From the IMG/VR virus record IMGVR_UViG_2740892423_000025: a stretch of 4,635 nucleotides of DNA; one strand, written 5' to 3'. Position numbers and translations under genes: made by a program. Source of the stretch: a virus. Lineage: Duplodnaviria; Heunggongvirae; Uroviricota; Caudoviricetes. A model generated the notes under the pieces. That model was not told the DNA's origin, did no database searches, and saw only the letters and a program-made list of their open reading frames with translations. Below, in pieces: positions 1-3,205 of this stretch (position 1 is its first letter; the number at the start of each line of letters is the position of its first letter).

Positions 1-387
1 GTGCAATATTTAAAAGGAACGCCATTACATCAGGCCCGATTTGCAGGCGTCAGGATTACATGTCCTTCAGAGCTTTCCTCTTCAATAGAGGAGTATTTTA
101 AAAATAATGGATTTGATATAGGTCGTGTGACTTGCTTCTCTGCGAATGCACCCGATATGCTTAGTGTTACGTTTGAGTTGCTCTCACGGGCGAAAAAATT
201 TGCAGAGGTTATTATGGGGTTATTGAACAGGAATGATGTCGAAGTTGAATTACACCTTTGTACCAGAGACGATGAGCCTAAAACTGCAAAGCTCAAATTA
301 AGAAACCTCAAAGATGTTGATGCGTGTGAGCGTCTGATTGATAAACTGGCTGCAGTGGTAATAACGCCAAAGAAAAATGAAGAATAA
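1..387 (+). CDS. hypothetical protein, probably 5'-truncated at the window edge (family not recognised)
   Basis: Frame open from base 1 to TAA at 385-387. The GTG at 1 cannot be tested as a true start because no upstream sequence is in the window. Followed 24 nt later by an intrinsic terminator. Amino-acid composition looks protein-like. Confidence 0.5.
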   Translation: MQYLKGTPLHQARFAGVRITCPSELSSSIEEYFKNNGFDIGRVTCFSANAPDMLSVTFELLSRAKKFAEVIMGLLNRNDVEVELHLCTRDDEPKTAKLKLRNLKDVDACERLIDKLAAVVITPKKNEE

Positions 388-410
388 TCGGTAAGCCAAC
401 CACCCTCTCT

Positions 411-449
411 GGAAATAAAAAGCCCGCGACTAATCCTGCGGGCTTTTTG
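411..449. terminator. bidirectional rho-independent terminator shared by the convergent 1-387 gene and the hok-like transcript
   Basis: Stem 421-427 (agcccgc) pairs with 438-444 (gcgggct), 10-nt loop. Flanked by an A-rich tract 411-420 (a U-tract when read on the - strand) and TTTTT at 445-449 on the + strand. Confidence 0.6.
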
Positions 450-468
450 CATTCAGGTTTGTGAGATG

Positions 469-483
469 GGGTGCCTTATCGGC
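469..483 (-). promoter_or_regulatory. fbi-like 3' element of the toxin mRNA, complementary to its predicted 5' end (810-823)
   Basis: Plus 469-483 gggtgccttatcggc is an inverted repeat of plus 810-823 gccgaaaggcaccc. In the - strand RNA, 5' GGGUGCCUUUCGGC can pair with GCCGAUAAGGCACCC in the 3' UTR: 14 bp with one bulged U, including 9 contiguous perfect bp. Confidence 0.4.
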
Positions 484-533
484 CTTACCCTGGCAACCGA
501 TTGACGGGGGATTGCTCCCCCGTCGCGGTTTCC

Positions 534-677
534 TTACGGTTTACACTGTAAGAACGCCGCAAACTCCGCTCCCCAGAAGCTCATCCGTATCTCGCAGAGC
601 GAACCCTGCAACATCCAGATGATGAGGATTGCCGTCACGCACAGTGTGGTGATGGCGATTAGCGATTTTTGCGACAT
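534..677 (-). CDS. hok: Hok/Gef-family type I toxin (small membrane protein), 47 aa
   Basis: Not in the ORF track (too short). Reverse-strand translation ATG 677-675 to TAA 536-534 gives MSQKSLIAITTLCVTAILIIWMLQGSLCEIRMSFWGAEFAAFLQCKP. Hydrophobic N-terminal segment, then SLCEIR and E-x-AAF motifs as in plasmid R1 Hok (…[25 protein letters not shown], from memory). SD AAGGAG about 8 nt upstream of the ATG. Confidence 0.8.
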   Translation of the reverse strand: MSQKSLIAITTLCVTAILIIWMLQGSLCEIRMSFWGAEFAAFLQCKP

Positions 678-780
678 AGCACTTGCTCCTTTTTCGGAGA
701 GGCGCTAACCTACGACTTGCGAAGGTTGTATGGCTAGGGCCTCGGGTTAACGTTAAAGTTGACTCGGGGCCTTTCCACAT
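541..780 (-). CDS. mok-like overlapping reading frame (79 codons) that fully overlaps the hok-like ORF in another frame
   Basis: ATG at 780-778 preceded by GAAGG. In-frame stop just upstream (793-795) fixes the maximal extent. Ends at TAA 543-541, 7 nt beyond the hok stop, the arrangement described for mok/hok. The protein sequence itself is not diagnostic. Confidence 0.4.
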   Translation of the reverse strand: MWKGPESTLTLTRGPSHTTFASRRLAPLRKRSKCYVAKIANRHHHTVRDGNPHHLDVAGFALRDTDELLGSGVCGVLTV

Positions 781-809
781 CCGGCCTTCGGTTTACCCTC
801 CAGCCATCA

Positions 810-823
810 GCCGAAAGGCACCC
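810..823 (-). promoter_or_regulatory. tac-like 5' element of the toxin mRNA (partner of 469-483)
   Basis: Lies exactly at the transcription start predicted independently from the promoter at 830-859. Complementary to 469-483 (see that feature). Confidence 0.4.
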
Positions 824-829
824 GCGCGA

Positions 830-859
830 ATTCTAGCCTGGTTTTTTCCCTTGTTTCAA
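830..859 (-). promoter_or_regulatory. candidate sigma70 promoter of the hok-like transcript
   Basis: On the - strand: -35 TTGAAA (859-854), 18-nt spacer, -10 TAGAAT (835-830). Predicted start near 823, giving a transcript of about 410 nt to the terminator at about 415, similar to the roughly 400-nt hok mRNA of R1. Confidence 0.35.
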
Positions 860-863
860 TCCG

Positions 864-891
864 TTGAGGCCTCTCAGCCTTCTGATATAAA
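864..891 (+). promoter_or_regulatory. candidate strong sigma70 promoter with extended -10, driving the 898-964 small RNA
   Basis: -35 TTGAGG (864-869), 16-nt spacer, TG at 883-884, -10 TATAAA (886-891). Predicted start at G898 or A899. Confidence 0.45.
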
Positions 892-897
892 ATTCCC

Positions 898-964
898 GAC
901 CGCAGACATTATTCAGTCACGCATTTGATACATGCTTCCGCCGGCGTTCGCGCCGGTTTTTTTT
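898..964 (+). ncRNA. candidate ~67-nt small RNA, divergent from the hok-like gene (possible Sok-like antitoxin RNA; relation to the toxin unproven)
   Basis: Bounded by the promoter at 864-891 and the terminator at 941-964. No ORF with an SD inside. Possible small stem 921-924/932-935. Size matches type I antitoxin RNAs (Sok is about 64 nt). It does not overlap the predicted toxin mRNA (about 415-823). Confidence 0.4.
941..964 (+). terminator. rho-independent terminator
   Basis: Perfect 6-bp GC stem ccggcg (941-946) / cgccgg (951-956), tetraloop ttcg, followed by eight T (957-964). Confidence 0.65.
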
Positions 965-981
965 CGTCCTGTTGCTGCGTA

Positions 982-1239
982 GATCGTCATGTGCGATCGA
1001 GGCGCGGTATTGATCCTTTTTTCAGTTTAATTTTGACTCTTAATTTTACGCAGGCCGCGCCGCGTCTGGCTTCGTTGTTTGACGATTTTTTGATGCGATC
1101 CTTTCGCGATCGTGTCTTGTCCCACGTAAAGTATGAAAACTCTTTTAATATCATGCTGTTTTATTGCTACTGCCATTTGTGCGATCGTAAAAACCACTCT
1201 GAAAACTGCAAAAAATTTCAAAGCGTGAAATTTCAGATC
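982..1239. other. cluster of seven GATC (Dam) sites, three in the context GCGATCG; TGTGCGATCG occurs twice
   Basis: GATC at 982, 995, 1012, 1097, 1108, 1183 and 1236 (first base), counted by eye. 10-mer TGTGCGATCG at 990-999 and 1178-1187; CGCGATCG at 1105-1112. Confidence 0.5.
1213..1233. promoter_or_regulatory. AT-rich perfect palindrome AAATTTCA-N5-TGAAATTT, possible dimeric regulator site
   Basis: 1213-1220 aaatttca and 1226-1233 tgaaattt are exact reverse complements around a 5-nt spacer. GATC at 1236 lies 3 nt downstream. Confidence 0.3.
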
Positions 1240-1345
1240 TTCGCTTTTCCCTCAGTTGCTGCGCGGGCTGGCGGTCAGTTTTGCACGGCAGAAAACTGAA
1301 AAACTGTTTCGACACAAAACCCGCGGGTTGGAGGGGGTAGCGCGG

Positions 1346-1385
1346 TTTACGTCACCTCACGCTTTACGTCACACCGTTTACGCGG
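1346..1385. repeat. direct repeats of TTTACG(TCAC): two exact 10-mers and a third partial copy
   Basis: tttacgtcac at 1346-1355 and 1363-1372; tttacg again at 1377-1382. The third copy sits inside the inverted repeat cacaccg (1369-1375) / cggtgtg (1382-1388). Confidence 0.35.
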
Positions 1386-1442
1386 TGTGTGCATACAGCG
1401 CCGGAATGGCACGCAGAACGCATTAATCAGGTAGTGGATATG

Positions 1443-1507: not shown

Positions 1508-3205
1508 TCAGGCGATAAGGTCGCCGTATTTTTCGCGCAGATTCGTGGCCTGCAGGGCATCTGCAGCAAGCTCGCTGCTGTTTGTTGGTGTGCCGGTGTT
1601 GCTGTGGGTATGGTTTGCAGTATGTGTGGCCAGCAACTGAACCAGATCCAGAATATCAATCAACAACGTCAGCAGATTAAGTCCGGATTTTTCCCGTGAG
1701 CCACTGCGACCAATAAATACTGTCGGGGCTGTAAACTCCAGACCACCGTCCGCCCGGCATGTTCTGCGGCCTCCCACGTTTTCAGTAAGGTCGCGCTCAA
1801 TCGTGGATGTCGCCCCTTTGAGTTTAGTCAGCAAATCCTGCGCTACCATCTGGATATGCTCACCGGCTGCGATCGCGTAATGGCCGGTAGTAAGGTGCTC
1901 TATTTGTCCTGCCATTAGCTTGCTGGTTCCCAGAACGCTGGTTATATCGTTTGCCTGTACTGTGGTTGTTCTGGTTGTTGTTGTGCGTTCCTCCTGATCG
2001 CTGTTAATGGTTCGCCGGGCTGAATGTTCTCTGATTTGCTGATCGGTTTCTCTGTGCCAGCTTCCGTCAGTCGTGACGCGCTGAAACACTTCTGCGCGCT
2101 GTTGCTGCAGCTGTTCGCCGGGCTTTACATCAGGCAGGTTATGGCCAGCGGGTAAGATTTGCCTGATAACGGGTTTGTCCGGACGTCCTTCAATGTTGGA
2201 TATTTCCACGATGGTGCCTGCCGGTGGGTAGGCAAAACATCCCGCCTCACTGCCAGCCATGGGGACGGGGAGCGGTACTGCCGGGTAAACGGGCGTGTCG
2301 CTTTTATCGTTGCCGTCCTCATCGAGCAGTTGCACATCGACGGCGTAGCGTGGGCGGAAACTGTCGGCCACATCGCCCAGGGTGGCGGGCTCCGTTGGCG
2401 CAATGACGCGCGCCAGCCGGGTATGTAGCGTACCGCTGGCCAGTTCCGGGAACTGTGTTTCCATTTGTCTGCGTAATGGTGATTTGGAAACAGGGTTACC
2501 CGTGGCGGTAAGGCGCTCCCATGTCAGGGTCATTTTCTCGTTGTTGAGGGCTACACGGGTAATGCGCCCGGCCGGTAGGTTCACGCCCGGTCGCACAGTT
2601 TCCATAAACATGATGTCGATGCTGTTTCCGCCGCTTTGCCCGAGCGTGTACTGTTGCGGAATATCCGGCATTGTAATACTGGCAAATCGTGAATCAGCTG
2701 CGCTTCCCACAAATACAGAACCGTCCGGCATAGGGTGCCAGACGTAATCGCTGATACTGAATGCTCGCCCCAGTTGGCTGAGCAGTTGTGCTCCGCTGCC
2801 GCTGTGGGTGATGTAGGGAGTTGGTATACTGGCATAATCCGCATCCGGAGTGATAAAAACGATACCGCTTTGTCGCCCCAGATTATCGAGTACCCTCCGC
2901 AACGTCGGGTGTTGCATGGAGCAAGGGAAATCAAAATCCAGCACAGCAGCCGCTTCACGAATAAAAAGGCGACGTGAGCCATTTTCAGCAGGTTGATCGC
3001 GCTCAATGTAGCCGGAGAAATAGCGCCATGCTTCACCGTCACGGCCGAGATCAATTTGTACCATTGCGCCGGCAAGGCTGTGTTCGGGTGACAGATTGTT
3101 AACAGAAATGAAGCCACGACCGGCAGCATTCAGGGTAAGAACAAGGCTTATATCGGCAATTTCCACCCGTTCGCCATTAATCATGCAGCGTTGTATCAAT
3201 TTCAT
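1508..3205 (-). CDS. baseplate hub/spike-like protein (gp5/gpV/VgrG-type OB-fold and His-rich tip behind a ~270-aa N-terminal domain), 565 aa
   Basis: Longest ORF in the window. SD GGAAGG 7-8 nt before ATG 3205-3203. Start overlaps the upstream stop (ATGA). Residues 327-347 PPAGTIVEISNIEGRPDKPVI match the P-x-x-G-x-x-V-x-I…G-x-x-D-x-P-V pattern I recall in P2 gpV and VgrG. C-terminal ATHTANHTHSNTG resembles the His-rich apex of P2 gpV (LHTHKH, from memory). Family call is by eye only. Confidence 0.7.
   Translation of the reverse strand: MKLIQRCMINGERVEIADISLVLTLNAAGRGFISVNNLSPEHSLAGAMVQIDLGRDGEAWRYFSGYIERDQPAENGSRRLFIREAAAVLDFDFPCSMQHPTLRRVLDNLGRQSGIVFITPDADYASIPTPYITHSGSGAQLLSQLGRAFSISDYVWHPMPDGSVFVGSAADSRFASITMPDIPQQYTLGQSGGNSIDIMFMETVRPGVNLPAGRITRVALNNEKMTLTWERLTATGNPVSKSPLRRQMETQFPELASGTLHTRLARVIAPTEPATLGDVADSFRPRYAVDVQLLDEDGNDKSDTPVYPAVPLPVPMAGSEAGCFAYPPAGTIVEISNIEGRPDKPVIRQILPAGHNLPDVKPGEQLQQQRAEVFQRVTTDGSWHRETDQQIREHSARRTINSDQEERTTTTRTTTVQANDITSVLGTSKLMAGQIEHLTTGHYAIAAGEHIQMVAQDLLTKLKGATSTIERDLTENVGGRRTCRADGGLEFTAPTVFIGRSGSREKSGLNLLTLLIDILDLVQLLATHTANHTHSNTGTPTNSSELAADALQATNLREKYGDLIA

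Follow-up and report, generated by a model that had tools for sequence, protein, structure and literature searches.

A long gap between genes, at positions 965-1442 of the 4,635-nt stretch of DNA analysed here (the window), overlaps a conserved non-coding block of ~465 bp (1010-1475) that is very probably the cos (packaging) region of an HP1-type P2-family prophage. It would most likely represent a known kind of cis-acting element that is unannotated here. The block is marked by its position behind the last tail gene, by its conservation across 51 of 5426 complete genomes of E. coli and in prophages of E. albertii and Edwardsiella, by its homology to phage genome termini, and by its presence in P4-like satellites. 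That the DNA is cut here, exactly where, and which repeats terminase would bind are predictions from these features. The assignment gives a function to a long unannotated gap in all of these genomes and offers, for an uncultured lineage of HP1-type coliphages, a prediction of the genome ends.

The prophage and the limits of the gap

The window constitutes the left arm of a ~37 kb P2-family (Peduoviridae) prophage. More than 80% of it is present in 41 of the 5426 complete E. coli genomes, at 92-95% identity, and all copies of the gap in these genomes are chromosomal. Searches with megablast and blastn found the gap in none of the isolates of the phage collections and in none of the plasmid collections. 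The closest isolated phages, which include Yersinia YenM_324, the ESSI-2 group, Salmonella SI7, SW3 and SW5, Aeromonas and Vibrio P2-likes, and HP1/HP2, have terminases that are at most 60% identical.

A complete element is located between flk and pdxB in E. coli SC418. From attL, it comprises an N6_N4 methyltransferase gene with Com, an ORF of 128 aa (window 1-387), hok (534-677, minus strand), the gap, and the genes for proteins of 565, 191 and 237 aa. These are followed by a DUF4376 gene and the genes for tail fibres, baseplate, tape measure, and sheath and tube, then by the lysis and head genes and by terminase (gpM/gpP homologues), portal and ogr. The remainder consists of Rrf2, parM and a partition/stability gene, a replication endonuclease of the gpA type, cox, a helix-turn-helix protein placed where P2 has its C repressor, int and attR. 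The genome from which the window derives most likely carries the version integrated beside serS, in which hok and the 128-aa ORF are the sole cargo (L073, L075). In the element of accession NZ_LR778147.1 (L002:1890-3168), parM and a gene annotated as plasmid partitioning/stability adjoin the replication gene, an uncommon arrangement for a phage that integrates and a hint of a plasmid-like phase.

The decisive lead to the cos assignment was synteny with Haemophilus phage HP1: homologues of HP1 orf33, orf34 and orf35 lie on the minus strand to the right of the gap. The 565-aa protein (1508-3205, minus strand), which is the product of the last late gene and anchors the cos region, matches PHROG 2258 'baseplate protein' (phrog_2258, E 4e-233) and is 41.6% identical to HP1 orf35 (E 5e-108). 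The 191-aa protein is the homologue of orf34 (E 3e-38; Pfam HP1_ORF34) and the 237-aa protein that of orf33 (E 4e-19). The complete prophage keeps the HP1 order, with the last late genes followed by the predicted cos and then by the attP/int side.

The gap is framed by two terminators. On the side of hok, an intrinsic terminator on the plus strand (940-965), formed by the hairpin GCCGGCG-TTCG-CGCCGGT (940-957) and a T8 tract, lies at the outer edge of the hok cassette and is carried along with hok rather than with the cos block. On the opposite side, a 10-pair hairpin on the minus strand (1443-1472; 1446-1469 in the terminator scan) closes the late tail operon of orf33-34-35 homologues, just 3' of the 565-aa gene, whose stop lies at 1508. 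No ORF of the gap is kept open with a start codon across relatives. Of 32 aligned relatives, 2 have an intact ORF 925-1299 on the plus strand and 5 an intact ORF 1027-1221 on the minus strand; the other four ORFs of at least 30 aa (987-1154 and 1151-1315 on the minus strand, 1133-1228 and 1256-1426 on the plus strand) are disrupted in L028, L005, Edwardsiella and the satellites, by loss of the start, by frameshift or by stop codons. The first-pass annotation had described the gap as lacking a credible ORF between two terminators and had judged 925-1299 and 1027-1221 to look spurious, and both statements are borne out; annotation pipelines have no grounds for ORF calls in 965-1442.

Two further features were noted on the hok side of the gap. 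A promoter-like sequence, TTGAGG-18-TAAAAT (864-893, plus strand), lies ~50 nt 5' of the plus-strand terminator and may give rise to a ~70-nt transcript at the outer border of the cassette, transcribed away from the hok promoter (859-830, minus strand). The leader of hok (664-823, minus strand) matches the Rfam sok model with 41.9 bits (E 3.6e-07), a score below the gathering value of 59, as would fit a hok/sok locus of chromosomal or prophage type that has diverged.

The left edge of the gap (965-1010) is the junction between exchangeable cargo, here the hok cassette, and the conserved cos block, since the similarity between the window and relatives with different cargo breaks off at 982 (L024) or at 1010-1012 (L003, L012, L005). 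Conservation climbs at 1010 from ~0.7 to ~0.9. The first-pass suggestion that the gap might contain the junction of an acquired element therefore holds for this edge. The slot between cos and the attachment site (window 1-965; L001, L003, L005, L071, L072) is a hotspot of variable cargo. It contains hok alone, hok with the 128-aa ORF (PHROG 14142, with no assigned function), hok with a DUF4875 gene, hok with the 128-aa ORF, com and the N6_N4 methyltransferase, or a YafO toxin with a 208-aa protein and an AAA_15/AAA_21 OLD-like ATP-dependent nuclease. The protein adjacent to YafO, of 208-259 aa (L003:5270-5896 and L005:5292-6071, both on the minus strand), is named 'iron-sulfur cluster assembly scaffold protein SufA' in RefSeq. 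No Pfam family matches the 208-aa version from L003; RefSeq has probably misnamed the protein, which may be the partner of the YafO-family toxin.

A near-invariant core homologous to the genome termini of relatives

Within the block, the best-conserved stretch of the gap is a near-invariant core, AGAAAACTGAAAAACTGTTTCGACACAAAACCCGCGGGTTGGAGGGGGTAGCGCGGTTTACGT (AAAACTGAAAAA...CCCGCGGGTTGGAGGGGGTAGCGCGGTTTACGT; 1290-1352), which reads AAACCGCGCTAC-CCCCTCCAA-CCCGCGGGTTTTGTGTCGAAACAGTTTTTCAGTTTTC on the minus strand and is found 156-190 bp past the stop of the orf35 homologue. Its 10-nt bins are 0.90-0.99 identical over 33 distinct sequences, and it is nearly unchanged in the Edwardsiella prophages. 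The orf35 protein of these prophages is 61% identical to that of the window, and the non-coding DNA of 1096-1352 is as well conserved (70%) as the neighbouring coding DNA (66-72%), which marks the element as strongly constrained by selection.

The first-pass annotation had also called the gap dense in motifs, and the counts exceed chance. All six copies of TTTACG in the window are located inside the gap, with 1.95 copies expected per 4635-nt window and six reached in 3 of 200 shuffles. The motif TTTTCAGTTT, with at most one mismatch, has three of its five window matches in the gap; 0.48 are expected, and none of 200 shuffles reaches five. The first of the three copies is on the plus strand (1019-1028), the second, TTTGCAGTTT, is inverted and has one mismatch (1203-1212, minus strand), and the third, also inverted, falls within the near-invariant core (1293-1302, minus strand). 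Copies of this motif also flank the genome end of HP1, of the ESSI2 group and of the S.Kent fragment described below. An inverted TTTACG copy is included in a further conserved block, CACGTAAAGTATGAAAACTCTTTTAATATCATG (1123-1155), that is kept in the satellites too. Three direct repeats, CGGTTTACGTCAC, CGCTTTACGTCAC and CCGTTTACGCGG, occupy 1343-1385 on the plus strand, on the tail-gene side of the predicted cut; they are identical in the satellites and are candidate terminase-recognition (cosB-like) elements.

Megablast and blastn searches with the whole gap matched nothing in the phage and plasmid collections, and only a low-stringency search with the core recovered a fragment of the Salmonella phage S.Kent 1-2-1; here the core aligns with a contiguous motif (blastn, 78%). 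The linear records of SW5, ESSI2_ev015, ESSI2_ev129 and ESSI-2 start or end within this core-homologous motif. The two ends of the SW5 record read ...GGCGCTACACCGC and GCACCCGCC..., and the ESSI2_ev015 and ESSI2_ev129 records show ...GGCGCTAC followed directly by a Nextera adapter, the other end of the ESSI2_ev015 record starting with GCACCCGCC. The boundary of the ESSI-2 record is located 12 nt further into the same motif, and the ends of HP1 (...CCACT and TCCTTCCCCACC...) fall in the same alignment columns as the other termini. All of these termini map to window 1320-1345, those of SW5, ESSI-2 and the ESSI2_ev phages being record ends and those of HP1 annotated cohesive ends. An orf35 homologue is placed at the extreme end of many linear records of the clade, among them HP1, HP2, K139, phiO18P, PV94, F108, ESSI-2, ESSI2_ev015, ESSI2_ev129, ESSI2_ev040 and SW5. 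The distance from the GTAG of the core to the stop of the orf35 homologue is 167 nt in the prophage, and the matching distances are 175 nt in SW5, 188 nt in ESSI2_ev015, 192 nt in HP1 and 198 nt in ESSI-2.

The adapter is found at the start of NC_049395.1 (ESSI2_ev015, nt 1-48; L061) and at the 5' end of NC_049394.1 (ESSI2_ev129; L067). Its reverse complement, CTGTCTCTTATACACATCTGACGCTGCCGACGA, is fused directly to the right arm of cos, ...GGCGCTAC. The adapter is a contamination, yet it marks the end of the assembled molecule.

Because the termini of the relatives fall within the homologous motif, the terminase cut is placed in 1320-1345, in a predicted cosN-like cleavage region with the sequence CCCGCGGG-TTGGAGGGG-GTAGCGCGG. 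By analogy with the 9-nt cosL of HP1, the cohesive-end segment would lie at ~1328-1336, a placement that is good to ~10 nt. The ends are thus predicted from the sequences of relatives with terminases no more than 60% identical. During lytic growth, concatemeric or circular phage DNA would be recognised at this region by terminase and cut in the G/C-rich core, which would generate two virion chromosome ends, one with the tail genes (the orf35 side) and the other with the cargo, attP and int. On the tail side, recognition would likely involve the three direct repeats of TTTACG, and on the opposite side the TTTTCAGTTT motifs.

Contigs of the lineage that break at the predicted site were sought in IMG/VR, Logan and NCBI, and none was found. 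Scans of IMG/VR with the full core and with each arm likewise returned no contig breaking there; L066, considered as a new core match in the IMG/VR scan, was rejected as a chance 16-mer within a coding region. An exact-protein look-up of the orf35 homologue gave seven genomic or Logan contexts, none of which ends at cos.

Satellites, GATC sites and alternative functions

Three P4-like satellites of ~12 kb carry part of the block: L041 (11,987 nt) and L054 (12,061 nt), which are IMG/VR contigs, and L004:1-6900, which adjoins hpt in E. coli 52F4. Each encodes an integrase, an 895-aa Toprim/P4-alpha-like primase and an ogr/delta-like gene. Window 1202-1469/1504 is present in them at 79-82% identity, with the core and the TTTACG repeats identical, and the 1123-1155 block is also kept (88% over 33 nt in L054). 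Satellites of P2-type phages share the cos signal of their helper (Ziermann and Calendar 1990, as quoted in PMC9122126), and the presence of the block in these satellites therefore supports a packaging function. The sharing does not amount to proof, because hok, ogr and int DNA is also common to the satellites and the prophage, and the block could in part have travelled into the satellites with hok. An origin as a mere hitch-hiker of hok is weakened by the loss of the DNA between hok and 1202 and by the identity of the core. Carriage of the block would be expected of elements that use the terminase of a helper. The satellites would depend on the packaging machinery of this helper, and the cos block offers a sequence handle for finding further ~12 kb elements that appear to exploit the lineage. 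They also encode a P2-family major capsid protein of their own (374 aa, PF05125), which is 44% identical to the capsid protein of the prophage over 278 aa; the classical P4 gene set has no capsid gene.

The left part of the block contains a cluster of GATC sites, at 982, 995, 1012, 1097, 1108, 1183 and 1236. Seven of the 17 GATC in the window fall in 982-1239 (263 bp), where 0.8 are expected from the density in the 37-kb prophage (Poisson P ~2e-5), and the cluster is the densest in the whole prophage. All phage versions, that of Edwardsiella included, retain the sites at 1012, 1097, 1108, 1183 (~1194 in Edwardsiella) and 1236. None of the cluster sites is present in the three satellites, so they are probably dispensable for cutting and packaging as such, and packaging alone does not account for the left 300 bp. 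The GATC sites may serve the phage alone in a role that depends on methylation, or may simply belong to an array of protein-binding sites.

It is possible, though not very likely, that the left half (~980-1290) is a separate regulatory element sensitive to Dam/SeqA, beside cos and compatible with the cos reading; its methylation state might control a phage-specific process such as the timing of cos use, transcription through the region, or sequestration after replication. The density of the cluster speaks for such an element, as does the conservation of five GATC positions to Edwardsiella despite an overall identity of ~70%. The corresponding arm of ESSI2_ev015 and of the S.Kent fragment also has pairs of GATC spaced by ~11-12 bp, and that of SW5 a wider pair. 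A Com-controlled N6_N4 DNA methyltransferase is encoded nearby in some phage versions, and HP1 encodes a Dam methylase (HP1 record; cited in PMC7556043). The region has, however, no promoter-like site, and some of the GATC may be conserved merely as part of a conserved block. A more specific proposal, which we consider rather unlikely, is that the conserved cluster forms a module that senses methylation and is linked to the cos region of these helper phages. The methylation state of the five conserved GATC (Dam, SeqA or the Com-controlled phage methyltransferase) would then gate a phage-specific step, such as the conversion of new DNA into a packaging substrate or transcription across cos, and the satellites, by shedding the module, would escape methylation control. 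Literature searches on HP1 cos and on Dam-dependent cos packaging found nothing directly relevant.

The remaining readings of the gap are far less probable. That it holds an unannotated small gene or RNA, such as a second type I toxin encoded by the 31-aa ORF or a product of the 56-aa ORF, is very unlikely. ORF 1133-1228 specifies a hydrophobic 31-aa peptide beside hok and is intact in 18 of 32 relatives, but L026, L003, L028 and Edwardsiella lack its ATG, and its frame contains 3-4 stops in L005, Edwardsiella and the satellites; as a second toxin it is rejected on conservation. An open 56-aa counterpart of ORF 1256-1426 exists in Edwardsiella, but TTG, the sole start of this ORF, is lost (TTA) in L001, L029 and L024, and frameshifts or stops interrupt the ORF in L028, L005, Edwardsiella and one satellite. 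The Rfam covariance-model scan gave no match in the gap, its hits elsewhere being sok/hok at 664-823 and weak chance matches; single-sequence folding of the gap yielded z-scores of only -1.1 and -1.2, and no promoter-like site was found inside it.

A replication origin or partition site is extremely unlikely. The GATC cluster, the iteron-like direct TTTACG repeats and a GC content that falls to 36-40% at 1100-1250 would suit such a site, and the prophage encodes ParM and a partition/stability protein. The gap contains, however, no DnaA box with one mismatch or fewer, the parM genes are ~25 kb away, and the prophage has a gpA/HP1-rep-type replication endonuclease; the P2 gpA-type protein nicks an origin inside its own gene. 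Moreover, the satellites, which have their own primase, keep the core and drop all GATC, and the core maps to the genome termini of relatives, with the repeats beside them. Neither an IHF consensus nor an Ogr-type late-promoter dyad (TGT-N12-ACA) was found in the gap. It is just as hard to credit that the gap is a non-functional spacer or a scar left by insertion of the hok cassette. The breakpoints at 982 and 1012 indicate that recombination does occur here, but the DNA to the right of 1012 is conserved like coding DNA as far as Edwardsiella and includes the near-invariant core of ~60 nt. The unannotated RNA and the origin that the first-pass annotation had offered for the gap are thus disfavoured, and nothing was found that points to its third suggestion, a transfer-related site. 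What remains of its interpretation is a conserved cis-acting DNA site joined to a cargo junction; cos was not named.

Comparison with known packaging sites

The assignment of 1010-1475 as a cos region is best compared with HP1 (Hpunavirus, Peduoviridae; NC_001697), in which orf33-34-35 are the last late genes, as in the prophage. The right cohesive end of HP1 is located 192 bp past the orf35 stop and is followed by cosL, attP and int, so that both genomes present orf35, ~170-190 bp of DNA, the cut, and the attP/int side. The non-coding block measures 442 bp in HP1 (orf35 stop to attP) and ~465-496 bp here; the length of the gap, which the first-pass annotation had considered unusual, is real but typical of this phage group. 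Direct repeats of the ACG(G/T)AAA type, CACG(G/T)AAA in HP1, occur on the tail side in both, and TTTGTGT and TTTTTCAGTT are found in both ~25-45 nt beyond the cut. The cut stretch is C/T-rich in HP1 and C-rich in the prophage, with TCCTTCCCC in the HP1 core in place of CCCCTCCAA. No BLAST alignment beyond 10-11-mers connects HP1 with the gap, and HP1 lacks the GATC cluster, having 2 GATC in the first 420 nt. In HP1, cos leads directly to the attachment site, whereas 0.9-2.3 kb of cargo (hok and others) intervene in the prophage.

Among the enterobacterial phages compared, Salmonella SW5 (Irrigatiovirus), Escherichia ESSI2_ev015/ev129 (Quadragintavirus) and Cronobacter ESSI-2 (Seongnamvirus) have in common with the prophage the homologous motif AAAC(C/G)GCGCTAC...ACCCGC..G..TTTT...TTTTTCAGTTTTC...GACCGCCAG, and carry GATC sites in the same arm. 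They differ in the segment at the cut, which is ACCGC in these phages and CCCCTCCA in the prophage, and the tail-side repeats are GACAAAA in the ESSI2 group as against TTTACG. Their orf35 homologues are only 47-49% identical to that of the prophage.

The pac site of P1 is a Dam-methylation-dependent packaging site with a cluster of GATC in TGATCA/G hexamers, and serves headful packaging. The gap resembles it in that a packaging site, here a predicted one, is accompanied by a GATC cluster. The contexts of the sites differ, being CGATCG, CGATCC, TGATCC and AGATC(G/T) in the prophage, and methylation is unlikely to be required for cutting, because in the satellites the cos core is retained in the absence of GATC.

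The cos of P2 and P4 (19-nt GGCGAGGCGGGGAAAGCAC) has a G/C-rich cut site, as in the prophage, and the TTTTTTCAG found in P2 ~45 nt from the left genome end can be likened to the motif beside the prophage cut. The 19-nt cohesive end itself, GGCG(A/T)GGCGGGGAAAGCA(C/T), is absent from the gap. The location is also different: in P2, cos is placed between old/tin and the adjoining portal gene Q, whereas the predicted site of the prophage follows the last tail gene and is ~20 kb from portal and terminase. Hotspots of variable accessory and defence genes next to cos have been described for P2 and P4 (PMC9122126), where cos is common to helper and satellites and adjoins the hotspot, as it does here. 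The P2/P4 pattern of variable cargo next to cos would thereby extend to the HP1-type layout, in which cos is placed after the tail genes.
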